Source of the DNA: a virus
Taxonomy: Duplodnaviria; Caudoviricetes
DNA: 64,000 bases
Direction: 5' to 3' (one strand)
Virus record (IMG/VR): IMGVR_UViG_2920580016_000002
Location: 1 to 64,000 of that record
Every line of letters starts with the position of its first letter. The stretch's first letter is position 1. The notes under the pieces were generated by a model that saw only the letters and a program-made list of their open reading frames with translations, did not search any database and was not told the origin of the DNA. A program made the position numbers and the translations under genes. Positions 2,851-28,671 of this stretch are shown here, piece after piece.

Positions 2851-3527
2851 GCCAAGGGCTCCTGTCGCCAGGTGTGTGTTTGGGATGGCTCCACTCTTGC
2901 AGCCCCCGGCCGCCCGCCGCAACTGACGTCTGCGCAGGTCAAGATGCGTTTCAGAGGCCGTTTTTAAGGCTCGCGCACGCGTAATTAAGCGTTTCCCCAG
3001 CCCGCGAGGACCTCTCCGGCCCGCACTACGCGGGATTCTGGACGTAAACCTCGCCCGCAGCCGCGTAGAGCCACAATGTCACGGTTGCATAACACTGAGG
3101 TCCTGTCCGAGGAGCCGGTTAGGCTCCGGTTATGAACCTGCAAGAGATCATCGCAGCGAAGCGCCGAGAGTACGGAGCGGCCGAGTGGCGGCGCATGGAG
3201 CTGGAGGCCGAGCAGGCGACCGGCACGTGGATCGACTACCGGCGCGGTGTTGAGTGCTGGCGCTGCGGTCACACCAGCCGCCCCTGTGCCTGCCCCGAGT
3301 AGTCGCAAACGCGAAGGCGGACCTCCCGGCGACGTCTTGCTGTTCTTACGGGGAAAGCGCGACGGCAATCCTCGATGAAGGGCCGGGAGGCCCGCCACGT
3401 GCGCGGGAGGTGTTCATGTGGCCATAACCACCGTAAGGCTCTCTCGGGCCTCAATGGAGCCCGCGCACGCAACGAAGATACGCCTGCGCCCATGCTCCGG
3501 CAAGGCAATCACCAGAACTTGACGCCC

Positions 3528-3758
3528 TCACTCTGATTCGACCCAGAAGGTGGACGAGGCTCTGCCCGTGGCGTCGTACGTCAGCTTGACGATCTGCTCC
3601 GAGTCCGGCTGACCCAGGCACAGGCCGAACTCCTCCGCCAGCAGGCCCCGGTACTCCTCGTCCGAGATTGGCTCTCTGTGCCACGTCGAGACCGTGGCTG
3701 TTCCGTCTCCGTGATCACGCAGCACCGTGATCATCGTCTGCGGGTTCCCTCTGGACAC
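3528..3758 (-). CDS. possible small hypothetical protein
   Basis: 76-aa ORF with protein-like composition, isolated in the gene-poor region. Confidence 0.4.
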   Translation of the reverse strand: MSRGNPQTMITVLRDHGDGTATVSTWHREPISDEEYRGLLAEEFGLCLGQPDSEQIVKLTYDATGRASSTFWVESE

Positions 3759-5339
3759 GGGTTCGACCTTTCGCCGAATTAGCCCTAATTAATTGCTAAT
3801 TAGCTCGAAGCGAATTAAATCTATTGCACGTGCAATTAAGGGACTGGCTCCTCGCGGTGTTAGGCGCACAGCAAGGAGCCAGCCGATGCTCCATCCTGCC
3901 AGCTCGACCAGCTCGACGGTCACCGAATCCCCGCAATTCCCCCGATTCGCCGCTTGTGACGTTACGTTAGCTAGCAGGTGCCGCACGTACAGGCCACTGT
4001 CTTCACTCTCTGTACTCCCGCCGCGTGGCTGGTCGGGCCGCTAGGAGGGACCCGCAAGATCATTTAAGGGTGGGGGGTGCCTGTCAAGCGCGAGCGGCTG
4101 TCACAGCGCGTTCTAGACCTGTTGCAGAACGCTAGAGAGACTTGTGAGAATGGCACTACTCACACATAGGACGTGACCAGGCACGATGTCACACAGTGAT
4201 TTCTATACCATACGTGTCAAGCTCACGCTGTGTATCTAGACCAATCTCGGGGAAGCCCTACCGGCCACTGTCAGGAAATGATCTTCGGAGTCTGACAGTG
4301 CTGCCCGACCAACGGGAAACGGGAACGAATCCCCACTACTCTGGTTGGTTAACTGACAGCTATGTAAGGACATAAGCACAAAAGCGCTTGCAAGCCGCTT
4401 GCTCCAGCAATCACGGAATGCGCTTATATAAGTCAATTCGCATAGTTCCGACGGCGCGCGTGGCGCGCACGGAACGGGGGCACGCCGGGAAATCCATAGA
4501 TGCCTCTATGCGTCTCTGTAGTACATCTAGGAGGCTCTATGGGCCTTGTTTGGTAGTCATTCCCCGAGCCCGATTTTCTCGCCTCTATGGTGCCTTGTAG
4601 GCCCGTAAATTCGTTCTCGGAAACCTATTGACTCTCTACTCGGATCGAGTAGTCTATGGATTGTTCGGCCAGCGGGAACGGCCGGACCGGTCGCCCCACG
4701 AGCCACGATCCCCGCAAGGGATACGGGCACGGAAGCGGGTATGAGGGCCGACAATTGCATATGACTATGAGCGTGGAGAGGGCTTGCCCTTCCGTGCCCC
4801 GACTTTTCCAGGATGCTCGCGTTTCAGCCTGCGCATTGCGCGGCGCGCTTGAGCGGTCGGTGACACGCACGGACGGCAAGGGTCTAGCTAGGTCTTATTT
4901 AGTCATGCGCGGGAGTCGGTCAGATTCTTGAGTATTCAATAGTGGATTTGGGAGCACTGGACTTGTACCAATGCCCTGATGTGCCTATCTCGCAGTGTGG
5001 CAAGCGCACTGTGAGACTTGCGCGATGATCTCTCGCCGAGATACGCGGACCGTTGTCTCGCCCCGAAAATTTGGGCTGGTTGACCGGGAGCCGCTGGGTC
5101 AAGTTGTGGGAGCGTAGGCACATGTGGTTAGCCACCACGAAGGGAGCGCGTAAGCGCACGTCGCAAGCCGTAAGTAGGTCTTGGACCGGTGCCCCGGCGC
5201 GGACAGCAACGCACGAACCTTATTCACCGCGCCACACGCTAGAGATTGGCCTAGCGAACCAATCTCTTGTGTGTTCTCTGTACGGGCAGACGCGCGTACC
5301 GGGAATATGCACAAAGGCGAATCGTAGAGAGGTAAGAGA

Positions 5340-5519
5340 ATGATCACTCTCGAATACAACCCGTTCGCGAAGCAATTCGACGTCAAGCGGGATGGCGAAT
5401 ACATCGGTTTGATAGAGGAGAACCACGAGACTTACCGGGCGCGTAAGATCGGCTCAAGTTTCGCGAACACAACACAGAGCATGTGTGACGCAATCGACTT
5501 CATCACTGAGGGGAAGTAG
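5340..5519 (+). CDS. small hypothetical protein (59 aa, MITLEYNPFAKQFDVKRDGEYIG...), absent from the ORF track
   Basis: AGAGGT RBS, ATG 5340 to TAG 5519; apparent first gene of the rightward block. Confidence 0.7.
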   Translation: MITLEYNPFAKQFDVKRDGEYIGLIEENHETYRARKIGSSFANTTQSMCDAIDFITEGK

Positions 5520-5527
5520 GTAGAGGC

Positions 5528-5671
5528 ATGGCAGACAACATCGCTCGGCAAGCGCTTATCAATCGGGCGCGGAAGAACAACCACTACTTGCGGCGCGGGC
5601 TCATCTCATGGGCGGATTGGGCCGAAGAGGTGCGCCATATCCAGGCGTACGCATGGCACGTGGTCGGCTAG
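5528..5671 (+). CDS. small hypothetical protein (47 aa, MADNIARQALINRARKNN...), absent from the ORF track
   Basis: GAGG RBS, ATG 5528 to TAG 5671, followed directly by hammerhead 1. Confidence 0.65.
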   Translation: MADNIARQALINRARKNNHYLRRGLISWADWAEEVRHIQAYAWHVVG

Positions 5672-5674
5672 TGA

Positions 5675-5746
5675 TGGCGAAACGCTCGTCTCCCTAACCG
5701 GGAACGTGCGTCGTGCGTAGTTGGTCACTGCGCACCTGATGAGCCA
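5675..5746 (+). ncRNA. type II hammerhead ribozyme #1, predicted cleavage after C5712
   Basis: Stem II TGGC/GCCA, GAAA 5679-82, stem III CGC/GCG, GUC triplet 5710-12, stem I GTGCG/CGCAC, CTGATGA 5736-42. Confidence 0.88.
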
Positions 5747-5788
5747 AACCCAGCTCACAGCACCAACACACAGAAAGGCGGTAGACCC

Positions 5789-6022
5789 ATGGCACAGGGA
5801 CACATGGCGAACGTGCGGGCCGACGGGTACATGGCGCTCGTGATCGGAGCCGCGTTTTCGGACGGCTGGCATGTGGAGCAGACGGAAGAGGCTACCTACA
5901 TCTTCACCAGAGGTGACGAGACGGTCACACTGCCGTTCGTGGAGAACATGCGCGACGCGTTCGATGTCCTGCACTTCGCCGAGCGCTACGGGCTCATGAG
6001 CAAGATCACTGGCAAGCGCTGA
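5789..6022 (+). CDS. hypothetical protein
   Basis: CACACAGAAAGGCGG leader before ATG. Confidence 0.75.
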   Translation: MAQGHMANVRADGYMALVIGAAFSDGWHVEQTEEATYIFTRGDETVTLPFVENMRDAFDVLHFAERYGLMSKITGKR

Positions 6023-6139
6023 CCTTACTTCCGTGTTTCCCTATGTGCTAGCGTCTACCAAACCGGGAGGCGCTAGCACACAGCTCACACGCCCTCACCA
6101 GGGCATCTCTGTGCCCACACCCCAGAAAGGCGGCAAATC

Positions 6140-6454
6140 ATGGTCTCGTTCCTTCCGGATGGCGCGTACGACCGCGACCGTACCCAGACTCCCTACACGT
6201 GCCGAATCTGCGGAAAGGATAGCTGGGTATACAACCCAACCAACCCGAGCATGTTCCGGAGCACGCCGACGGCACACAGCTCATGTGAGAACGCGATCGG
6301 CTACACCAACGCTGACATGCGGCGTGCCACGCTGGCGGGCGATGAGCTGGGCGCGTTGCACCACTACGGCCGGTACCTCCGTGCATGCGCTGGTAACCCG
6401 GATCCCGACTCATGGGACCTGCCGTCGCTCCAGCAGTATCCCCACATTCGCTAG
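6140..6454 (+). CDS. hypothetical protein with CxxC motif
   Basis: CAGAAAGGCGG leader; CRIC...C...C. Confidence 0.7.
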   Translation: MVSFLPDGAYDRDRTQTPYTCRICGKDSWVYNPTNPSMFRSTPTAHSSCENAIGYTNADMRRATLAGDELGALHHYGRYLRACAGNPDPDSWDLPSLQQYPHIR

Positions 6455-6523
6455 GCGAAACGTGCGTCTACCTAACCGGGACGCGCGTCATGCCGGGATT
6501 GGTTACCCGGCGTCTGACGAGCC
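6454..6523 (+). ncRNA. type II hammerhead ribozyme #2, predicted cleavage after C6489
   Basis: GGC/GCC stem II, GAAA 6457-60, stem III CGTGCGTC/GACGCGCG, GUC 6487-89, stem I ATGCCGGG/CCCGGCGT, CTGACGA 6514-20. Confidence 0.92.
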
Positions 6524-6572
6524 AGACCGCGCACGGCAGAACCCCAACCATCACACAGAAAGAGGGACACCT

Positions 6573-7718
6573 ATGTCTCGCGAGTCCATGACCTGGCTGA
6601 ACACTCAGACTCTCATCGGCTTCGCCGCGAAGCGTGGGAAGGCGTGGCACTACCGGTCGGAGGAGCAGGGCGCGGAGTCGAACCACTACGACGGCGCTAT
6701 CCCGCTGGAGGACGTCAAGCGGCGGCTGTTCCACTGGGAGCCGCTGGAGATGCCCATTTTCACCATCATCCCCGCACAGATCACGGCGGACGGCGTCCAG
6801 CCTGCCCGCATCGTGCGCTTCAAGGACCGTAAGTCCATCCTTCGCTCTGACGAGATGGAGACGGTCGGTATCGACGTCGCCCACATCAGCGCGCTTGCGG
6901 CTAACCCGCATGTGGAGCTGGAAGACCTGGCGGACAAGGGCGTCCTTGCTGGCTTGGACGGCAACGCGCTGGGTGTGTTCATGGACAGCTACCAGCCGCA
7001 CCCGTACGCGCAATGGCTGCTCATGAACGTTGAGCGCATCCTTGACGGCAACCTCTCCATCGGCTCGGCCGGTCTGCTCAAGGGCGGAGCCCAGGCTTGG
7101 GTGTCCGTCGAAGTTCCCGAGAACATCAAGACGCCGGAAGGTGTGGACTTCCGCCCGAATCTGCTGGCCACCACGAGCTTTGACGGCTCGCTCGCCACCA
7201 CATACAAGAACGTGGTCACGGTGGTTGTCTGTGACAACACGCATGCGGTTGCCATGCGAGAGAAGGGGCAGGCGTTCAAGGTTCGGCACAGTTCCAAGAG
7301 TCTGAACAAGATTCAGGACGCGCGGGCCGCGCTGAACATCGTCTACGACACGGCCGACGCGTTCCAGCAGGAGGTTAAGCGGCTGTGCGAGACAACGGTC
7401 ACTGACAAGCAGTGGGCCGCGTTCATGAATGAGCTGGTGCCCGTTCCGACCGACCCGAAGAAGAAGCAGGGCATCACCATGGCGGAGAACAAGCGCGCCG
7501 AGTACGCCCAGCTCTGGAACTGGGATGAGCGTGTCAGCCCGTGGAAGAACACCGCATGGGGCGTTCTCCAGGCGGTCAACACCTACGACCACCACAAGGG
7601 CATCGTGAAGGGTGCCACGCGGGCCGAGCGCAACATGTCCAAGATGGTCAAGAACCACTTTGAAACCCTGCGTACCGACACGCTGGACACGCTGAACAAG
7701 GTTCTCGCGACGGTGTAG
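6573..7718 (+). CDS. DUF932 / phage-plasmid LGT_TIGR03299-type protein
   Basis: Start ATG 6573 after the leader; AWHY, YQPH, SAG.L.GG.Q.WV, TSFDGS..T, VVCDNT, VRHS and TAWG.LQAVNTY.HH motifs. Confidence 0.85.
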   Translation: MSRESMTWLNTQTLIGFAAKRGKAWHYRSEEQGAESNHYDGAIPLEDVKRRLFHWEPLEMPIFTIIPAQITADGVQPARIVRFKDRKSILRSDEMETVGIDVAHISALAANPHVELEDLADKGVLAGLDGNALGVFMDSYQPHPYAQWLLMNVERILDGNLSIGSAGLLKGGAQAWVSVEVPENIKTPEGVDFRPNLLATTSFDGSLATTYKNVVTVVVCDNTHAVAMREKGQAFKVRHSSKSLNKIQDARAALNIVYDTADAFQQEVKRLCETTVTDKQWAAFMNELVPVPTDPKKKQGITMAENKRAEYAQLWNWDERVSPWKNTAWGVLQAVNTYDHHKGIVKGATRAERNMSKMVKNHFETLRTDTLDTLNKVLATV

Positions 7719-7867
7719 GCCGCTCATGGGAGCGTCTCTCTAACCGGGAGATGCTCCCACCCCTTCCCCGATTTCTAGGCGAGCTAGGGGGACGCACGGG
7801 CCGCGTGTCCGTGCCTCCCTCAGTTCGATGTGACGTCGGACTCCCCACACAGAAAGGCGGTAGATCC

Positions 7868-8158
7868 GTGCTGCTCAACAAGCTCCGCACGTCCGATGCG
7901 GTCGCTAAGTTCCTCCGGCAGGCCGGTTGTCTGGGTGTGCAGATGGACAGTAGGACATGCCCGGTCGCGCAGTACATGCGGCGGTGCTATCCGCAGGCAA
8001 AGAACATCTCTGTCGGATTGCGTTTCTCGCACATCAACCTCCGTTCTGGTCTGCTCGTGATCAGGCACTCAGATGCGGTCAAGCTGTTCGTTGAGAGTTT
8101 CGACAGCGGGTATTACCACGACCTGATTAGCAAGCGTAACGACGCCGACCAGCGTTAG
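7868..8158 (+). CDS. hypothetical protein
   Basis: Leader motif followed by GTG 7868; CPVAQY and FV..FDSG.Y. Confidence 0.7.
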   Translation: MLLNKLRTSDAVAKFLRQAGCLGVQMDSRTCPVAQYMRRCYPQAKNISVGLRFSHINLRSGLLVIRHSDAVKLFVESFDSGYYHDLISKRNDADQR

Positions 8159-8160
8159 CC

Positions 8161-8409
8161 ATGCCTGCATATCCGCTCGGATTCATAGAGGCGCTCTCTG
8201 ATGACTCGCCCGAAATCCGAGAGGATGCGGCGCGCTGCATCATCGAAGAACGCGAGGTAGAGCTAGCGGGCCTTCAAGCACGCCTAGCAGTCGCGAACAC
8301 CGCAACCCGACGCCGGAATCTCCAGACGCGTCGCAAAGCCCTTAGAAACAACATCAGCGCTTGGCAGGCGTACATAGATGACGGCTGCCCGCGCTACGCA
8401 CCTTCATAG
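8161..8409 (+). CDS. hypothetical coiled-coil protein
   Basis: Tightly packed ORF. Confidence 0.65.
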   Translation: MPAYPLGFIEALSDDSPEIREDAARCIIEEREVELAGLQARLAVANTATRRRNLQTRRKALRNNISAWQAYIDDGCPRYAPS

Positions 8410-8411
8410 GA

Positions 8412-8711
8412 GTGAGTGTGTCTGAGATCCACGAGAGCACGCCCGAGCAGCCTGTTTATCTGCGGTTCCTGGTCGGCCGAATGGAGTTGCTGCATCAGGT
8501 CACCATTCCGAGCGACAACGCGGGCCGCGTGGAAATGGCGCTGGTTGTTCTGCGACGGGAGCACGACACCACGCCTTACATCGTGTGCTACGTCAGCGAG
8601 CATTCCGCGAAGTTCGGGGAGTGGTTTGAAGGTTTCTACACCTCCGATCACGTCACCGCATACGTGGAAATGGCGCGACGGGCAAAGCTCTACGGCATCG
8701 AAGTCAAGTAG
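8412..8711 (+). CDS. hypothetical protein
   Basis: AGGAG RBS; its stop overlaps hammerhead 3. Confidence 0.7.
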   Translation: MSVSEIHESTPEQPVYLRFLVGRMELLHQVTIPSDNAGRVEMALVVLRREHDTTPYIVCYVSEHSAKFGEWFEGFYTSDHVTAYVEMARRAKLYGIEVK

Positions 8712-8771
8712 GCGAAACGCGCGCTACGGCGCGTGTCGTGTCGGGAGTCGTTACCCGATGCCTGATGAGCC
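8711..8771 (+). ncRNA. type II hammerhead ribozyme #3, predicted cleavage after C8737
   Basis: GGC/GCC stem II, GAAA 8714-17, stem III CGCGCGC/GCGCGTG closed by a cUACGg tetraloop, GUC 8735-37, stem I GTGTCGGG/CCCGATGC, CTGATGA 8762-68. Confidence 0.93.
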
Positions 8772-8795
8772 AGACCACACAGAAAGGCGGGAGAA

Positions 8796-9314
8796 ATGGC
8801 ACCTCGCATTGACAAGAACCTGGTGATCGTTCTGGACCACACGCGATTTCAGGGGTTCGGTCACATCTACGCCAAGCCGTTCGTAGAGAACAACGGGTTC
8901 GAGCCGACCGGTAAGGGTGATCTCCTAGCCCCCGGACTTGGTAGCCGGTGGGGCTGGGAGCGTAATTACAACTGGCTGCGTGATCTCCGAACGTCAGCGC
9001 AATACACCATTGGGCACGCGGACGGAGGCTTGTACGGCTACGACATCCACTATTCACAGCCGTTCAGTGTCCAGCTCTACCAGGCGGAGGCGATGGTTAA
9101 GGCACTCCGCAAGATCCATCGAGAGATGGACAAGCTGAAGAGCACTCACGGCTACCCCGATTCCTATGGGGAGTACGTCGCGCACTTCGCTATAGCTATC
9201 GGCTGCAACCGCTTCGCCACCTGGCAGAACGGCACGCGTAGCTACATGTGGATGAACACAGCCGAGATGCGTACTTGGGTGGAAGGCGTCTTTCGCGAGG
9301 CGGTGGCGGCCTGA
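8796..9314 (+). CDS. hypothetical protein
   Basis: Leader motif before ATG. Confidence 0.75.
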   Translation: MAPRIDKNLVIVLDHTRFQGFGHIYAKPFVENNGFEPTGKGDLLAPGLGSRWGWERNYNWLRDLRTSAQYTIGHADGGLYGYDIHYSQPFSVQLYQAEAMVKALRKIHREMDKLKSTHGYPDSYGEYVAHFAIAIGCNRFATWQNGTRSYMWMNTAEMRTWVEGVFREAVAA

Positions 9315-9315
9315 C

Positions 9316-9549
9316 ATGGAAGACGTACGCGAGGCTGACAGGCCCATGGTGGGCATTGTGGCCTGGTCCAATCAGGTCTGTGTCTACCGTCTCCCCGATT
9401 ACGCCGATTGTTTCCAGTCGATTGCCGTTCTCTGGGGTGAATACCTCTCGGGAACGGTAGTGCTGGAAGTGACGCCGGACGCATGGGAAGCCGAGCGAGA
9501 CGAGCTGCTTTCCGCGCCGGATATCACGGTAGCGACCTTCGGTTTCTAG
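9316..9549 (+). CDS. hypothetical protein
   Basis: Packed ORF with GAGG RBS. Confidence 0.6.
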   Translation: MEDVREADRPMVGIVAWSNQVCVYRLPDYADCFQSIAVLWGEYLSGTVVLEVTPDAWEAERDELLSAPDITVATFGF

Positions 9550-9683
9550 GCGGTCTAGGGGGATGCGCGGACACGCGCCGCGCGTCCCTCAGTCCGATGT
9601 GACTCCGGACTATTCCCCACTGCTAGAAAACCGTGCGTCTCTCAAACCGGGAGGCGTGCGGCGCAACGCCCAAAGGATGAGCC

Positions 9684-10268
9684 GTGACACCTATTCCCCT
9701 CCCGGTTTCTGACGAGACGCACGAGCGTTTCGTGGCCAACATCATCTACACGTACGGCCACGCGACACAGGACCAGTGGGAGCGCGGTAAGACCTGGTAT
9801 CACCAGGCTAACCAGCTCGCCGCGATGATCTCGGGTGGCGACGTAGTGACCGGTGCAGGCGTCATCGCTGCCCTGTCGAGTAACAAGCGGTGGAGCGATA
9901 ACACGAAGCTGGCTGCTCGCGCGTTCCTGCGTGGCGAACCGTCGGGGCACGTCGGTGATGCCCTGACGAAAGCGGCTCGGATCATGGCGGGCGAGCGGCC
10001 TACTGATGTTCTCCCCATGTCCAGCAAAACGGGCCAGTTCTTTCTGTGCATCGCCAATCCGGCCGATCCTCAGGCGGTCTGTGTGGACCGGCACGCGCAC
10101 GACGTAGCCGTTGGCGTGAGGTACGGCAGCGAGAATCGCGGCCTTAGCTCTAAGGCGCGCTACCAGGCCATCGCGGACGCGTACAGAGATGCCGCGCGGC
10201 GGCTTGATGTCCTTCCCCTGACGGTTCAAGCCGTCTGCTGGGTTGTCCAGATCGAAAGCAGCAACTAA
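9684..10268 (+). CDS. HhH/endonuclease III-like phage protein (DUF7178-like putative base-excision enzyme)
   Basis: G..WY..A, AGVIAALS, KT..F, VCVDRHA and Y..IADAY..AA...LP..VQA.CWV motifs. Confidence 0.6.
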   Translation: MTPIPLPVSDETHERFVANIIYTYGHATQDQWERGKTWYHQANQLAAMISGGDVVTGAGVIAALSSNKRWSDNTKLAARAFLRGEPSGHVGDALTKAARIMAGERPTDVLPMSSKTGQFFLCIANPADPQAVCVDRHAHDVAVGVRYGSENRGLSSKARYQAIADAYRDAARRLDVLPLTVQAVCWVVQIESSN

Positions 10269-10286
10269 CACAGAAAGGCGGAAGTT

Positions 10287-10856
10287 ATGTCCACAGAGTT
10301 TCTGACCATGGCTCGCGACGTGGCCCGTGAAATGGGCGGCTGGGATGTGCGGGGCGGTCCCTGGCCGAATCAGTTCTACATCTACGACGGCGACCAAAAG
10401 CTGTGCCTGACGTTCGACGACCTTGACGACACAGGCCGGGTCAACATCAGCACCAGCTACCCGGAACGGTCGGGCGAGGTATACGGCGTGAGGCAGTACA
10501 ACATCGGCGTGTCCTTCAAGCGCGGGGCGGCGGTGATCGCCCGCGAGATCAAGCGGCGGCTTCTGCCTAACTACCTGGCGGAGTTGGAGCGCGTGAAAAA
10601 GGAAATCGCCGAATTCGTAGAGGCGGAGCGCCGACAGGTGGCCAACGCTAAGGCGATAGCTGGCGCTCTCGGCGTGGAGTGTGCGGCGGTTGTTCACCCC
10701 TCCGGCATCTACGTGCGTACCGGATACAGCGGCGACTACCAGGACGTTGGTCGCCCCGAATTCCGCGTGTTGGGAAGCGGAAATGTTGAAATCAAGATCC
10801 ATGCGCGGGCCGACGTCGCGCTGAAGCTCGCCGAATTCATGGCGACAATCAAGTAA
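10287..10856 (+). CDS. hypothetical protein
   Basis: Leader motif before ATG. Confidence 0.75.
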   Translation: MSTEFLTMARDVAREMGGWDVRGGPWPNQFYIYDGDQKLCLTFDDLDDTGRVNISTSYPERSGEVYGVRQYNIGVSFKRGAAVIAREIKRRLLPNYLAELERVKKEIAEFVEAERRQVANAKAIAGALGVECAAVVHPSGIYVRTGYSGDYQDVGRPEFRVLGSGNVEIKIHARADVALKLAEFMATIK

Positions 10857-10946
10857 CAACGGTCGCGAGCGCTTCTGGCATCGCCCGGATTTCCGGGCGG
10901 TGTCAGTGGCACGGCGAACGTGTCAGCCACACACAGAAAGGCGGTA

Positions 10947-11291
10947 ATGATGAAGCTGCTCAGTCTGTTCAAGCGCACGCCGCGCTACATCGTCGAGATC
11001 GCGCACGACGAGCTTTATGCCACATGCCTTAACCCCGACTGCCCGATGGACCTGGAGCAGATCAAGCTCCTAGACAACGGGGATGAGGCGGCCTATCACA
11101 TCGCGGTCTATCAGGTGTGCCCCGATGGCCACGGTAGCGAGTGCCCGCATGCCAATTTGATCGCCGACACCACCTGTATCGCGGACTACGGCCTTCCTAC
11201 GGGGCGATACAGCACCCCGGACGACATCGGCGGATCTGACTATCTACGCGATGTCGCTAGCGGCATCTGGCCTGGAAAGGTGGCGGCGTAA
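10947..11291 (+). CDS. Cys/His-rich hypothetical protein
   Basis: Leader motif before ATG 10947. Confidence 0.7.
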   Translation: MMKLLSLFKRTPRYIVEIAHDELYATCLNPDCPMDLEQIKLLDNGDEAAYHIAVYQVCPDGHGSECPHANLIADTTCIADYGLPTGRYSTPDDIGGSDYLRDVASGIWPGKVAA

Positions 11292-11542
11292 TGAATGAGC
11301 GGTCGCGACTCTGCGTGCCCATCGAGCGGGAGATTTACCGGCTGCTGCTGGAGCGCGTCCCGAACAATGCAGACCGGCTCCCCACGTTCGAGACCATCAA
11401 CGATATGGACGAGCAGGTAGCCCATGCGGCTATGAACTGCATAGAGAACTATCTGGCGGACAACGGAAGCCTGTGGCACTTCACCAGGCGGAGGCGCGTA
11501 CGCGAGTGGGCCGAGAACACCCTTAAGCGATTCGGTCTCTAA
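11291..11542 (+). CDS. hypothetical protein
   Basis: TAATG stop/start overlap. Confidence 0.7.
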   Translation: MNERSRLCVPIEREIYRLLLERVPNNADRLPTFETINDMDEQVAHAAMNCIENYLADNGSLWHFTRRRRVREWAENTLKRFGL

Positions 11543-11558
11543 GAGAAAGGCGGATGTA

Positions 11559-11822
11559 ATGAACGTTGCCCAAATCATCTGGTCTATGTCGCGGAGCCTC
11601 TCCCGATATGAGAATGCCCGCACGATCCTCGGAGAGACGTACGCGAAGCTCAGCCGTACCGATGTGCCCCCGCTAGACAGCGCACGGGAAGCGCTCGCGT
11701 ACGTGACAGACCACATCGGTTATGCACCCGGTCAGTCGCCAGACACCACGCTCAATGACGCGGTGGCTGTGCTGTCCATGTACGTGGCGATTCTCACTTT
11801 GGCCGACAAGTACGAGAGCTAA
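11559..11822 (+). CDS. hypothetical protein
   Basis: AGAAAGGCGG RBS. Confidence 0.7.
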   Translation: MNVAQIIWSMSRSLSRYENARTILGETYAKLSRTDVPPLDSAREALAYVTDHIGYAPGQSPDTTLNDAVAVLSMYVAILTLADKYES

Positions 11823-11838
11823 GGGAAAGGCGGAAGTA

Positions 11839-12141
11839 ATGGCACGCAAGGTAAAGCCGATGTGGACTCTCGTGCAGCACAGCGCTTATGGATGGGACCG
11901 CAAGGAGGGGTTCCGGCACATGGTAGAGACCAGGTCTGTTCTCGATCGTGTCCAGCAGCGGGAGATTGAGCGCCTGGGCGGCCTGCTCTTCGAGAGCTAC
12001 ACCGACGCCGATGAGGCGGAGTACCGGGAGAACTACCCCGAAGGTGCCGATCTCCTCGCCGGGAAGGTACGCGGCACCTTCGCCGAGTACAACCTTGACG
12101 GACTGAAGCTCTACATTCCCGCGAAAGACGACACGGCCTAA
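11839..12141 (+). CDS. hypothetical protein
   Basis: GAAAGGCGG RBS before ATG 11839 (MARKVKP). Confidence 0.7.
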   Translation: MARKVKPMWTLVQHSAYGWDRKEGFRHMVETRSVLDRVQQREIERLGGLLFESYTDADEAEYRENYPEGADLLAGKVRGTFAEYNLDGLKLYIPAKDDTA

Positions 12142-12233
12142 CGGGTCCTCTGGTCACCATGCCTGCCCCGAATTCTGCGGTGGGCATGGGCGGCTGGGGC
12201 GTCCGCTAGGGCGATCACACAGAAAGGCGGGAG

Positions 12234-12491
12234 ATGGGAAAGCACCGCAAGACCAGCATGCCGAATCCGACCAGCAACGTGGCCAACGAGCACGGCGCGA
12301 TGCTGGCGAGGTTCGGAACGACGGCACCCGAGGCCGAAACTCTCCTCCGTTTCGGCTCTTTGGTCCTGTCCAACATCGCTACTGGCTTCGCTCCTGATCG
12401 GGCAACGGCGGCGGCGCTGCGCTCCTTCAGCGATCCGGAAAACGTGGTCGAACTGGGGGCGTCGGTCTGGGAACGCATCGAAACCGAATAA
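12234..12491 (+). CDS. hypothetical protein
   Basis: Leader motif before ATG. Confidence 0.7.
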   Translation: MGKHRKTSMPNPTSNVANEHGAMLARFGTTAPEAETLLRFGSLVLSNIATGFAPDRATAAALRSFSDPENVVELGASVWERIETE

Positions 12492-12511
12492 CACAGAAAG
12501 GCGGTAGAACA

Positions 12512-12892
12512 ATGCGAGACGTTCACCTGGAATTCCGGGACAGCGTCGGCTGGTGCGGGACGGCACCAGAGGATGAGAACAAGATCACGGATGACCGGCA
12601 GCTCGCCACTTGCGACGACTGCCGTACGGCATGGGAGAACTTCGACGCCTCCCACGATGCCGAGCTGCCGGAGGACTACGACGGGTCCGAGCCGGAGCTA
12701 CTGGCCAAGATGCGCAGGATCCAGGCCGGTGTGGCGGGCCGCATCGGAAACACCCTGATCGACATGCAGAGCGCGAACCTCTGGGTGCAGGCATACGAGA
12801 AGGGCAACGACAACACCAAGGCCAAGCTACTGGAGATGGATCCGGGAACGGCGTGCCTTGCGCTCTGGCGCATTGTTGGGCGGTCGAAGTGA
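12512..12892 (+). CDS. hypothetical protein with C...CxxC motif
   Basis: Leader motif before ATG. Confidence 0.7.
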   Translation: MRDVHLEFRDSVGWCGTAPEDENKITDDRQLATCDDCRTAWENFDASHDAELPEDYDGSEPELLAKMRRIQAGVAGRIGNTLIDMQSANLWVQAYEKGNDNTKAKLLEMDPGTACLALWRIVGRSK

Positions 12893-13065
12893 CCGCCCTT
12901 GAGATTGCTGCTCGGGCCGCGTTCTACGCCCGGCAGCGAGAGGCACAGGCGGTCGTGACGGACCTGAGTCGGCGGGAGCGCGCGGCGCGGCGCTCGGGTG
13001 ACCGGGCGCACGTACGAGCCATCCGGCGCGAGGTGCGGCGCATCCGCTCCGAGGCATCGGCCTAA
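12889..13065 (+). CDS. small Arg-rich hypothetical protein (MTALEIAARAAFYARQRE...)
   Basis: GTGA overlap with the upstream stop; fills the gap to the next leader. Confidence 0.55.
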   Translation: MTALEIAARAAFYARQREAQAVVTDLSRRERAARRSGDRAHVRAIRREVRRIRSEASA

Positions 13066-13091
13066 ACACCACACACAGAAAGGCGGTAGTA

Positions 13092-14060
13092 ATGGCAGAG
13101 ATCGAACAGCGGGAGATCCTCCTCCCCGAAGGCAATGTGTTCGTGTCCATCGAAGAGGCTCGGGGTGAGCGCGGGGAGCTGCCCACGTTGCGCGTGGCGA
13201 CGTCAACCCACACAGGCACCGACGCCGTAGAGACCACGGTCAAGATCAAGGCGCACGAGTACACCTTCCTCATGCGGGTCATGCACGGGACGAAGAAAAC
13301 GTGGTTGTACTCCCGCCAGGAGTGGCAGGAGGAGCACGGATGGCACACGGCAGACAACGAGCACATTCGAACGGCGGGCGGTAACGAGCTGGGCCGGTAC
13401 TCTCCTACCGGCGAGCGGCTGGCCAACGTCGCCGTCATCGCAGCACAGGAGTACGAGAAGCTCGTACCTGACTGGCGCGTGCGCAGCAAGATCGCGGCCA
13501 TGCACAAGGCCATGAGAGCCGATTGGCACAGCTACTACCTGAACACGCGCGAGGCGGTAGGGCTGCGGCTGCACTGCGCGGAGTTGGAAGAGGGTATTCG
13601 CGCGCTGCTGCCTGACCTCACTGAGGACCTGCCTCTGCCCGATTTCGCTCTCGACCTCAACCAGCCCCACTTCCGCGAGATCTACGGCGAACACGAGTGG
13701 TGGCACACAGAGGGCGACGTCTACGGAAACCCCGGCATGTGGCACGTGCCTGGCTGCCCGGTGACGTGGCGGGCCGGTGCGGTCCGCAAGGAAACCGCGC
13801 CCATCATGCGACTCCTGGTGAAGGGCGGCGCGCTGTGCGGCTGCGTGCCTGACAAGACCACGGCTGTGGAGATGCCCGACGGCAGCCTGCGATGGCGGCC
13901 AAGCGGCCTGGCCTGGCACCGCTGGGCGGTGGTTGAGAAGGTCGCCGAGGAGTCACGGCTGGTGAGCTGGCACCTGACAGAGGACGACGTCATAGCCGCT
14001 GTCGGGCGAAGCCAGAACCCCACGGCGTGGGCCGCTCGCGCATACCTCACGCAGCCCTAG
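13092..14060 (+). CDS. hypothetical protein (322 aa; C-terminal H..GC / CGC possible metal site)
   Basis: Leader motif before ATG. Confidence 0.75.
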   Translation: MAEIEQREILLPEGNVFVSIEEARGERGELPTLRVATSTHTGTDAVETTVKIKAHEYTFLMRVMHGTKKTWLYSRQEWQEEHGWHTADNEHIRTAGGNELGRYSPTGERLANVAVIAAQEYEKLVPDWRVRSKIAAMHKAMRADWHSYYLNTREAVGLRLHCAELEEGIRALLPDLTEDLPLPDFALDLNQPHFREIYGEHEWWHTEGDVYGNPGMWHVPGCPVTWRAGAVRKETAPIMRLLVKGGALCGCVPDKTTAVEMPDGSLRWRPSGLAWHRWAVVEKVAEESRLVSWHLTEDDVIAAVGRSQNPTAWAARAYLTQP

Positions 14061-14167
14061 CGGGTCCTCTGATCACCGCGCGTCTACCTAACCGGGACAG
14101 GCGCGCGGCCGGTCGGGGCGTCCGCTCGGGCGATCACCAACACACAGAGAAAGGCGGTAGATCCGTC

Positions 14168-14437
14168 ATGCCCAAAGTCCTGATCTTCCCTTACCAGCGT
14201 CCCCAGAGCCGAGTTCCCGACGTGCGCGGCCTGGGCTGGGTGGCCCGTCGCGCCCTCATGATGCGGGCGTCATTCAAGCTGGAACGCCTGGAGAAGGGCA
14301 CGAGCATCCTCATCGGCCAGACCTTCGACGGCGACGAGCGGACCAAGCTCAAGGCGCAGCTCCAGCAGATCAAGGCGGATCTCCGCGCTATCCGGAAGTA
14401 CGCCAGCGATGGTTTCCCGGCTATCCGGGAGGTCTGA
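14168..14437 (+). CDS. hypothetical protein
   Basis: Leader motif followed by ATG 14168. Confidence 0.65.
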   Translation: MPKVLIFPYQRPQSRVPDVRGLGWVARRALMMRASFKLERLEKGTSILIGQTFDGDERTKLKAQLQQIKADLRAIRKYASDGFPAIREV

Positions 14438-15211
14438 GTGCTCGCCCGATTTTTCTGCGGTGCCCCTGAGCTGAGCTGGGCAGAAGAGCACGGCGACATA
14501 GGGCCGTTGTTCATCAGCTTCAACCGCATTTCCCGGTTAAAGTTTCGGCCGATCATCATCACCACGGATTTCGCTATCGACTCAGGCGGCTTCACACAGC
14601 TTTCCAAGGGCGGTTGGCCTGATGGCTGCGAAGAGCCCTACATCGCCGCGATTCGCAGGCTCAAGCGGCACATCTGGAAGGGTGCGCAGCACCTTCAGTG
14701 GATTGCCCCGCAAGACTGGATGTGCGAGGAAGAGCAGCTAGCCAACACCGGCCTTACGGTGCTCGAACACCAGCAGCGCACCGTACAGAACTTCGTTCGC
14801 CTCACCGAACTTGCCCCCGATCTTCCATGGGCCATGGCGGTGCAGGGCACGAAACCGTCTGAGTATCTCCGCATTCTCGACATGTACGCGGATGCGGGAG
14901 TGGATCCCCACGCGCAGAAGATCGTCGGTGTCGGTTCGATCTGTCGTATTCAGCACACAGACCTGGCCGTAGAGATCATCGAGTCCTTGCACAATGCCGG
15001 GCTGCGGAAGCTGCACGGATTCGGGCTGAAGACTGAGGGGCTCGCAAAGGTCGGGCACCTTCTTACCTCCGCCGATTCGATGGCCTGGAGTGAGCACGCC
15101 CGGAAACAAAAGATCCGTCTCGACGGGTGTCCACACAAGCGGTGCGTCTCTTGCCCGAAGTACGCCAAGCAATGGCGGAACAGGCTCATCCAGCGCGGCC
15201 TAGCCGCTTAA
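14438..15211 (+). CDS. DpdA/TGT-like (queuine tRNA-ribosyltransferase-like) base-exchange protein
   Basis: FAIDSGGF, APQDWMCE, VQG, VGVGSICR, LHGFGLK and SADSMAWS motifs plus C-terminal C.H..C..C. Confidence 0.8.
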   Translation: MLARFFCGAPELSWAEEHGDIGPLFISFNRISRLKFRPIIITTDFAIDSGGFTQLSKGGWPDGCEEPYIAAIRRLKRHIWKGAQHLQWIAPQDWMCEEEQLANTGLTVLEHQQRTVQNFVRLTELAPDLPWAMAVQGTKPSEYLRILDMYADAGVDPHAQKIVGVGSICRIQHTDLAVEIIESLHNAGLRKLHGFGLKTEGLAKVGHLLTSADSMAWSEHARKQKIRLDGCPHKRCVSCPKYAKQWRNRLIQRGLAA

Positions 15212-15507: not shown

Positions 15508-16026
15508 ATGCCCTTCGACAACCCCTCCCTTCTCGTCACCTTCGTTGGTGAGGGTGAGCACCGGCACGAAGAGCTGGAGTTCGACCTGCTTGACGTCGAG
15601 CTGGCGGAGCTGCAAGACGAGATCCGGAAGGCCATTGGGCCGTGCTACACGATCGAGACGGACGACGACGACTGGGAAGGCGTTGCCGTCGCAGAGGCGG
15701 CGTCGGCGCACGACCTGTGGCAGCTCGCCCGGACGGCTCACAAGCTGGACTATTCGGAGGCGTTCTTGGCCTGGGTGGCGCACGTCCGGCCCTACAGCAT
15801 CCGCAGCCTAAACCTGGAGGAGGCGGTTGAGGATTTCGGCAAGGAGTTCGTCGGAGCTTTCGAGAACTTCGAGGCGTACGGGCGTGACTCGCTGGCGGAT
15901 GAGATCTTGCGCTTCCCGGCGCTGGATACGTTCTTCGACTTCGAGGGGTACGGCGAATGGCTGGCTTCCGACTACACATCGGTTGACCTGAACGCGGGCG
16001 GCTTCGCGCTGTTCAGGAAGGTCTGA
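15508..16026 (+). CDS. ardA: antirestriction protein, ArdA family (DNA mimic)
   Basis: Very acidic; EAFLAWV, F.G.FE..E.Y and FFDFEGYG..L motifs with a FALFR C-terminus. Confidence 0.8.
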   Translation: MPFDNPSLLVTFVGEGEHRHEELEFDLLDVELAELQDEIRKAIGPCYTIETDDDDWEGVAVAEAASAHDLWQLARTAHKLDYSEAFLAWVAHVRPYSIRSLNLEEAVEDFGKEFVGAFENFEAYGRDSLADEILRFPALDTFFDFEGYGEWLASDYTSVDLNAGGFALFRKV

Positions 16027-28522: not shown

Positions 28523-28671
28523 TGCCGGTACTCCTCAACCCACTCAGGAAGCTCCAGCTCGTCCACGATGTGGATGGCCGGGTCGCGGTCGTGCTCGGTC
28601 AGGCCAGCGCCGTGCTTCGGCCGGACGGGGACGGGTTCCATGGGTGCTCCTTATCCCGGTTAGATAGACGG

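Follow-up and report, generated by a model that had tools for sequence, protein, structure and literature searches.

Natural type II hammerhead ribozymes were described in 2011 by Perreault et al. (PMC3088659), together with the pseudoknot between loop I and the 3' tail and its importance for the speed of cleavage. They showed that hammerheads in prophages form clusters that flank single genes or short blocks, one of them around ardA; three clusters cleaved in vitro, and the ardA cluster also did so in vivo. The element considered here, HH2, is a predicted hammerhead of this type in a 64,000-nucleotide stretch of viral DNA (IMG/VR record IMGVR_UViG_2920580016_000002, positions 1 to 64,000; hereafter "the window"), where it is located between an open reading frame (ORF) for a protein of 104 aa (6140-6454) and a DUF932 gene. 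It has in common with the described type II hammerheads the permuted topology, with stems I and III capped and stem II open and 3 bp long, the core, and the loop I/3' tail pseudoknot; here, too, several hammerheads lie close together and flank prophage genes, and the block again includes ArdA. It differs from them in its host, an actinomycete with a 70% GC genome, in its stem III, which is lengthened and tipped by a motif found at other gene junctions of the same phage, and in beginning on the final base of the upstream stop codon. Almost all of the finding is already covered by PMC3088659, and the ribozyme call adds little that is new; the novelty lies in an actinomycete as host, in the association with this early block, and in a stem III that contains the junction motif. 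In the literature searched, no paper joined hammerheads with actinobacteriophages or with DUF932.

For the motif only, a parallel is provided by the stoperators of the cluster A mycobacteriophages (the L5 and TipsytheTRex repressors; PMC9283540), which are likewise short, asymmetric, and multi-copy, occupy short intergenic spaces for the most part, follow the direction of transcription, and vary in sequence from one related phage to another. However, those are DNA sites of 13 bp to which repressor binding is proven, one copy also being located at the early promoter, whereas the motif here is a putative binding site, is missing from the gap at 3760-5340, and in its early copies tips RNA-type hairpins, two of them inside ribozymes. 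The SAS/ESAS elements of cluster K (PMC3203893) resemble the present locus in that a conserved asymmetric leader stands directly before many start codons (here CACACAGAAAGGCGG). In cluster K, this leader is often preceded by a ~17-bp repeat in the form of an inverted repeat, the consensus of which varies by sub-lineage and the function of which is given as unknown. The sequences of the two systems differ, no ribozymes are reported in cluster K, and the inverted-repeat arms are conserved there, whereas here one asymmetric motif lies between variable arms.

The role of bacterial and phage hammerheads is unsettled, and this locus constitutes a compact, testable case: three ribozymes (HH1, HH2, and HH3) in an apparently early anti-defence block (DUF932, DpdA, and ArdA), a co-evolving junction motif both inside and outside ribozymes, and a second phage for comparison. 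The interest of the motif lies mainly in the identity of its reader: a reader of RNA would tie self-cleavage to a protein partner, and a reader of DNA would carry stoperator-like silencing beyond the cluster A mycobacteriophages.

Architecture and conservation of HH2

On the plus strand, 6453-6531 has the order AGGCGAAAC, stem III, GUC, stem I, CUGACGA, GCC, and AGACC. Stem II consists of the pairs G6454-C6523, G6455-C6522, and C6456-G6521, so that G6454 is both the last base of the upstream TAG (6452-6454) and the first base of the ribozyme helix. Stem III pairs CGUGCGUC (6461-6468) with GACGCGCG (6480-6487), one G-U pair included, and comes to 9-10 bp once A6460-U6488 and a possible U6469-G6479 pair are counted. 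Stem I pairs AUGCCGGG (6490-6497) with CCCGGCGU (6506-6513) over 8 bp, and the GGUU of its loop (6501-6504) is complementary to the GACC of the tail (6525-6528). Core position 7, which the consensus leaves free, is a C. There is no mispair beside the core, where position 10.1-11.1 is G6521-C6456, 1.1-2.1 is A6490-U6513, and 15.1-16.1 is A6460-U6488; the lack of mispairs at these three positions is a criterion of the family (PMC3088659). The predicted cut falls 35 nt past the upstream stop and 83 nt ahead of ATG 6573. The first-pass annotation had listed these stems, the CTGACGA core, the GUC at 6487-89, the 8-bp stem I, the overlap of stem II with the TAG, and a 17-bp motif within stem III (CGTCTACCTAACCGGGA at 6465-6481), and all of them are present as it had placed them.

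With the Rfam Hammerhead_II model (RF02276), HH2 scores 37.1 bits against a gathering score of 37 (E-value of 6.6e-4 in the window and 3e-5 in the whole genome); the score is marginal because the long stem III loop is penalised as an insertion. HH2 lies with HH1 and HH3 within 3.1 kb, and all three are intergenic and on the coding strand. Beyond them, a scan of the 12.4-Mb genome with RF02276 gave no match above 26 bits. A fourth hammerhead at 9628-9722 was considered and rejected, the match reaching only 22 bits and U16.1 being missing.

The closest DUF932 protein among 5.8 billion sequences has 67% identity and is encoded on a 109-kb contig (L048) of Streptosporangium sp. NPDC050855, which is syntenic with the prophage. 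The homologous block of L048 contains five type II hammerheads (8431, 9193, 9887, 11900, and 13697), the third of which has its cut 75 nt ahead of that phage's DUF932 start. On a metagenome contig (L049), a hammerhead at 3056 stands immediately 3' of the DUF932 gene. A covariance model, R1, built from nine hammerheads (HH1-HH3, the five of L048, and the one of L049), recovers all nine at 68-95 bits, with HH2 at 86.7 bits.

In the model-fitted alignment of these nine homologues, which inflates pair counts somewhat, 97.7% of the pair cells hold standard pairs, and 16 of the 20 base pairs show compensatory changes on both sides. None of 500 shuffles reached these values, and partners slid by 1-3 columns pair in 24-48% of cells. 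Changes on both sides affect all eight pairs of stem I and seven of the nine pairs of stem III, while the middle pair of stem II is swapped from G-C to C-G in two homologues. A plain MAFFT alignment already has the same helices and the invariant core. The loop I/tail pseudoknot can form in all nine hammerheads, as GGU/ACC-type pairing in most, GUC/GAC in two, GAUC/GAUC in L048:9193, and UCCGCUU/AAGCGGA in L049. The mean pairing score of a loop with its own tail is 4.06, against 3.23 +/- 0.26 with shuffled tails, and 0.3% of the shuffles were as high. Through this covariation and the in-step changes of the pseudoknot, both the hammerhead assignment and the pseudoknot are well supported as predictions. 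The earlier description of a canonical fold thus holds for HH2 as a type II hammerhead that passes the Rfam threshold and covaries strongly with eight homologues. Its placement directly upstream of a DUF932 gene, also claimed, recurs in one relative, and the suggested loop I/3' tail pseudoknot is plausible, since it covaries in the relatives and is a known tertiary contact of type II hammerheads (PMC3088659).

Certain features of the homologues may be noted here. HH3 has a mosaic-like appearance, its stem III resembling that of L048:11900 and its stem I and tail being identical to those of L048:13697; in HH3, the start-codon leader directly follows the pseudoknot tail. A 10-bp helix around HH2 (6419-6428/6529-6539) was rejected as compatible with chance, with 1.7% of shuffles as good and no counterpart in the other eight.

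The distribution of the ribozyme appears narrow in the collections searched. R1 found nothing comparable in the genome beyond the known hammerheads, and 109 further genomes of the genus gave no match to RF02276. R1 matched hammerheads in four of 150 genomes of the family, none of them with the motif, and a DNA search of 400 same-family genomes recovered the DUF932 gene only, 19 such loci being without a hammerhead. Megablast of 5500-9500 against the phage collection gave no match, and no public sequencing runs, RNA runs included, were listed for this region. The nearest sequenced phages by DNA polymerase are Streptomyces phages of ~113 kb, such as BRock and GiJojo, at ~45% identity; no hammerhead was found in three such BRock-like phages, nor in the five actinophages with the closest DUF932 genes.

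The junction motif inside and outside the ribozymes

GTCTNYCWAACCGGGA, the motif carried by stem III, has 12 copies in the window at up to one mismatch, against 0.04 expected; at up to three mismatches there are 13 matches against 0.10 expected, and none of 100 shuffles reached 13. In the whole genome, 15 copies occur at up to one mismatch, 14 of which are within C1:644793-718870, inside the prophage. The 12 window copies are all co-oriented with the local genes, and 10 are outside coding sequence, the two others being inside a Cas4-like gene (35542) and over the first codons of the primase gene (49852). Of the six copies in the rightward block, five are 12-31 nt past a stop codon and the sixth (9637) is 88 nt past one. 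All six tip hairpins of 13-15 bp whose flanking arms vary between copies. G-U pairs in the hairpins of the early block make the sense strand fold better than the antisense strand (in two examples, -21.8 vs. -9.2 and -26.8 vs. -17.9 kcal/mol). Two of the 12 copies belong to hammerheads, in the stem III of HH1 and of HH2, and no convincing hairpin surrounds the leftward copies 28654, 35542, and 49852. The motif is absent from the divergent non-coding gap at 3760-5340, and the 27 kb past the right end of the window, presumed by synteny to hold structural genes, gave no copy either. Whatever the pairing register, the blocks GTCT and ACCGGGA are invariant, their centres lying about 10 bp from each other on either side of a variable middle.

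The Streptosporangium phage has its own variant of the motif, GTCTTTCACACCGGNA, in 13 copies over 39 kb, four of them in the stem III of hammerheads. The form ACCTAACC in the present phage corresponds to TTCACACC in its relative, and every copy within one phage carries that phage's variant. In orthologous hairpins (e.g., 6053 vs. L048:8803 and 14082 vs. L048:17436), the flanks are nearly unchanged and the motif is swapped for the variant of the phage in question. This concerted, genome-specific variation argues for a trans-acting reader of the motif sequence and suggests that the stem III copies are under the same constraint as the other copies. The motif is found in six of the eight hammerheads of the two phages. 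The hammerheads without it are HH3 (8710) and L048:11900, in each of which stem III is capped by cUACGg, and also L049:3056.

Elsewhere, a scan of IMG/VR for the motif gave 16 single matches, which were taken as chance. The combined hammerhead-plus-motif pattern gave no match in the species genomes and metagenome contigs, and a relaxed version gave nine matches, none of which fitted the hammerhead model. Some simple roles for the motif were considered and rejected. A T7-type phage RNA polymerase (PF00940), for which the motif might be a promoter, was not found in six frames genome-wide, a negative of unproven sensitivity, the control genomes also being without it. The junction hairpins do not include canonical intrinsic terminators, none being found on the plus strand of 3500-15000. 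Finally, the prophage lacks a CUGANGA-hairpin-GAAA unit with matching arms, as would be needed for a single trans-acting hammerhead aimed at the motif.

Two further copies, outside the window, lie head to head in a perfect long palindrome at C1:644793-644824 (about window -10156 to -10125; L054 9794-9825). This pair is ~20 nt past the stop of a zinc-finger (Phage_zn_bind_8) gene and comes after 600 nt of non-coding sequence on the downstream side of a LuxR-type gene; a similar arrangement occurs in the relative.

Several proteins might read the motif. A ProQ C-terminal-like protein (PF24203, Phage_ProQ_C_like) is encoded by both phages, at 1623-2084 on the minus strand (36.3 bits) and at L048 4082-4447 on the minus strand (31.6 bits), and is a candidate RNA-associated factor located near the motif copy at 2350. 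The prophage also encodes a 127-aa protein with two helix-turn-helix (HTH) hits (residues ~18-45 and ~68-101; L054 5581-5964, minus strand), the gene of which adjoins that of the integrase (L054 4297-5580). With two HTHs, such a protein might recognise an asymmetric DNA site in monomeric form. LuxR-, GntR-, and Lsr2-type proteins are also encoded by the prophage.

Role of HH2 and the reading of the motif

The favoured explanation, which we regard as probable, is that HH2 is an ordinary, constitutive type II hammerhead that processes the message together with HH1 and HH3 and whose stem III doubles as a junction hairpin read by a factor. The analysis establishes the fold of HH2, its covariation and conserved position, and the statistics of the motif; cleavage itself, the role in message processing, and the existence and nature of the factor are inferred. 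In the rightward early transcript, the RNA of HH2 would fold into its three stems, the active shape would be locked by the pseudoknot of loop I with the 3' tail, and the self-cut would fall between C6489 and A6490. HH1, HH2, and HH3 would in this way cut a polycistronic early message into mRNAs of one or a few genes. The upstream fragment would end with the stem III hairpin and a 2',3'-cyclic phosphate, plus whatever binds the hairpin. The 5' end of the DUF932 message, 83 nt ahead of its start codon, would be a 5'-OH on the stem I hairpin; the effect of this 5'-OH on the stability of the message depends on the host RNases. HH2 is probably active constitutively. The motif at the tip of stem III would be a separate module, the standard gene-junction element of the prophage, recognised by a putative phage-specified factor. 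That it is an independent module is indicated by the small number of copies in hammerheads, by the free-standing hairpins that it also caps, and by the hammerheads that lack it.

Certain observations weigh against this explanation. The Rfam score of HH2 is only 0.1 bit over the threshold, and the pair counts come from an alignment fitted to the model. The predicted minimum-energy fold of HH2 contains an alternative 5-bp helix, GUCUG (6512-6516)/CAGAC (6523-6527), which could compete with the core and the pseudoknot tail and so make cleavage slower. The hammerhead-plus-motif arrangement is known in two genomes only, and shared ancestry rather than selection could be behind the nesting of the motif in stem III. 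To our knowledge, a benefit of message cutting has been established for no bacterial hammerhead. As regards the alternative helix, HH3 and L048:11900 were checked by eye, and only 3 bp are possible at the corresponding position.

Another possibility is that HH2 is an inactive relic or a chance match, the region being nothing but a junction hairpin and its flanks. The score barely above the gathering threshold, the competing helix, and the defective hammerhead-like sequence nearby (9628-9722) would fit this idea. It is nevertheless highly improbable in view of the presence of all the invariant core nucleotides and of all three core-adjacent pairs, the retention of the helices via compensatory changes in nine homologues, and the presence of a hammerhead ahead of DUF932 in a second phage, the DUF932 protein of which has just 67% identity. 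A different alternative, raised in the first-pass annotation, is a protein-modulated ribozyme, in which a phage factor on the WAACC loop RNA of stem III would switch cleavage and so regulate the processing of the DUF932 message during infection. The stem III motif does follow the genome-specific variant in both phages, and so seems functional inside the ribozyme, and it is present in six of their eight hammerheads; the G-U pairs and sense-strand stability of the early hairpins point to a role at the level of RNA, both phages encode a Phage_ProQ_C_like protein, and regulated cleavage in phages has been proposed as a possibility (PMC3088659). However, a stem III of 9-10 bp is stable unaided, motif-less hammerheads occur in the same arrays (8710 and L048:11900), and most motif copies are outside ribozymes, with those at 28654, 35542, and 49852 lacking any hairpin. 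The binding protein is at the stage of a candidate, and no precedent was met in the literature, although no search was aimed at one. We consider such modulation quite unlikely; stem III as an ordinary gene-junction hairpin is the simpler and more likely reading. A related reading, unlikely but rather less so, is that the hammerheads of this phage lineage are organised around a hairpin at which an RNA-binding factor specified by the phage docks; this factor would either sit on stem III and so stay on the new 3' end after cleavage, or gate cleavage. If this were true, cutting and protein recognition would be parts of one gene-junction device, the specificity of which changes in step between related phages, and a natural hammerhead would be coupled to a protein.

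The remaining alternative concerns the motif and leaves the hammerhead real. The motif could be an asymmetric, stoperator-like operator at which a prophage regulator blocks transcription at gene junctions in lysogeny, in which case the copy in stem III would have no part in the function of the ribozyme. Pointers to RNA are the sense-strand hairpins, the placement after stops, the site inside a ribozyme helix, the motif-free promoter gap, and the Phage_ProQ_C_like protein; pointers to DNA are the invariance of the blocks regardless of pairing, the hairpin-less copies, the parallel with stoperators, and the HTH proteins. An asymmetric site of 16-17 bp, with 14 copies confined to the prophage and with window copies that are co-oriented and mostly intergenic, has the traits of a stoperator (PMC9283540), and the ~10-bp spacing of GTCT and ACCGGGA would suit contact with two successive major grooves. 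A DNA site would also be compatible with the variant that differs in concert between the two phages, with the existence of copies lacking a hairpin, and with the two-HTH protein of 127 aa next to the integrase, as well as with the LuxR-, GntR-, and Lsr2-type proteins. On the other hand, the divergent gap at 3760-5340, where the early promoters would be expected, has an AT-rich palindrome of its own and no copy of the motif, and the 27 kb of presumed structural genes beyond the right end of the window have none either. Moreover, six of the 14 copies are crowded into 8.4 kb of one operon, where they are always at the tips of hairpins with varied flanks and sense-strand G-U pairs, for which a DNA site has no need. 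On balance, an operator of this kind is somewhat unlikely, and the pointers leave a reader of RNA and a reader of DNA both plausible.

Prophage setting and neighbouring features

The window corresponds to G000:C1:654950-718949 of the 12.4-Mb genome. Over ~110 kb (roughly C1:636-746 kb), the GC content is 62-64%, against 72-74% on either side. This stretch codes for a tyrosine integrase, Baseplate_J, gp25, a family A DNA polymerase (PolA), DnaB, a DnaG-like primase, an SNF2 helicase, a class II ribonucleotide reductase, and a CHAP/PG-binding protein that is probably the lysin. The integrase, the set of phage genes, and the drop in GC therefore identify the host element as a large (~110-kb), temperate, actinophage-like prophage. 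The hammerheads stand at the beginning of a rightward block of small genes, 5340 to about 21550, the gene content of which suggests that it is early and of the anti-defence type (Table 1). For the DUF932 protein, the public gene call is of 376 aa, implying a start five codons later (ATG 6588 as read from the sequence).

Table 1. Positions of HH2, its parts, and other features of the window (+, strand shown).
Feature	Position	Strand	Remarks
Type II hammerhead HH2, whole Rfam match	6453..6531	+	RF02276, 37.1 bits
Stem II, 5' strand GGC	6454..6456	+	partner GCC 6521-6523
Core GAAA (G12 A13 A14 A15.1)	6457..6460	+	invariant in 9/9 homologues
Stem III hairpin, A15.1-U16.1 plus 8-9 bp, loop ACCUAACCG	6460..6488	+	
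17-nt prophage-wide motif CGTCTACCTAACCGGGA at the tip of stem III	6465..6481	+	
Cleavage triplet GUC	6487..6489	+	predicted cut C6489/A6490
Stem I hairpin, 8 bp, loop AUUGGUUA at 6498-6505	6490..6513	+	
Core CUGACGA (C3 to A9)	6514..6520	+	CUGA-N-GA invariant in 9/9 homologues
Stem II, 3' strand GCC	6521..6523	+	read from the sequence
3' tail GACCG	6525..6529	+	predicted pseudoknot partner of loop I UGGUU 6500-6504, 5 bp with U-G
Hammerhead HH1, motif in stem III	5675..5749	+	RF02276, 27.9 bits (below threshold); R1, 70.5 bits; predicted cut after 5712
Hammerhead HH3, stem III capped by cUACGg, no motif	8710..8779	+	RF02276, 42.8 bits; predicted cut after 8737
Free-standing motif copy, tip of 15-bp junction hairpin, no ribozyme	6053..6068	+	orthologue L048:8803
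Free-standing motif hairpin, 16 nt past the DUF932 stop	7734..7749	+	
Free-standing motif hairpin, within weak hammerhead-like match 9628-9722 without U16.1	9637..9652	+	
Free-standing motif hairpin, 22 nt past a stop codon	14082..14097	+	orthologue L048:17436
Upstream early ORF, 104 aa, no Pfam family	6140..6454	+	TAG stop 6452-6454
Leader common to early genes, with ribosome-binding region (CACACAGAAAGAGGG...), before the DUF932 start	6549..6572	+	
DUF932 gene, 381 aa from ATG 6573	6573..7718	+	Pfam PF06067, E 1.4e-44
DUF7178			rightward block 5340-~21550
DpdA	14438-15211		rightward block
ArdA	15508-16026		rightward block

The 104-aa protein upstream of HH2 has a single homologue among the 5.8 billion proteins (62% identity), which is encoded on a short contig on which no hammerhead was found. 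In the related phage, a non-homologous gene occupies the slot of this ORF. More generally, the two phages share the junction modules but not the genes between them, which are non-homologous, and the modules therefore also mark the boundaries of cassettes; they may be boundaries of recombination. Comparison of 6140-6454 with L048 8881-9886 reveals that the relative has a different gene, of 102 aa, and an extra gene, of 194 aa, flanked by two hammerheads.

Between the leftward and rightward blocks, the gap at 3760-5340 is a gene-poor region of 1.6 kb with a lower GC content. It is probably a regulatory switch region. AT-rich palindromes occur in it, such as ATTGCACGTGCAAT (3823-3836), but the junction motif does not; a comparable gap in the relative measures 2.2 kb.

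The spacers of the rightward block contain other repeated pieces. The leader CACACAGAAAGGCGG(T/G/A)AG occurs directly before many of its start codons, at about 13 sites between 5764 and 14165 (e.g., 5764, 7843, 8773, 10264, 10927, 13069, and 14140), and is much longer than a ribosome-binding site. A spacer element of ~75 nt has two copies, at 7769-7842 and 9540-9611, with the form CTAGGCG.. CTAGGGGGA ... CCCTCAGT.CGATGTGAC..CGGACT; these copies are placed like the hammerheads, have no Rfam match at E-values up to 1, and could represent an undescribed structured RNA. A third repeated piece, GG.CGG..GGGGCGTCCGCT.GGGCGATCAC, is located just before the leader at 12188-12218 and 14107-14137, and the same piece is found in the relative after the orthologous motif hairpin (L048, from about 17460).

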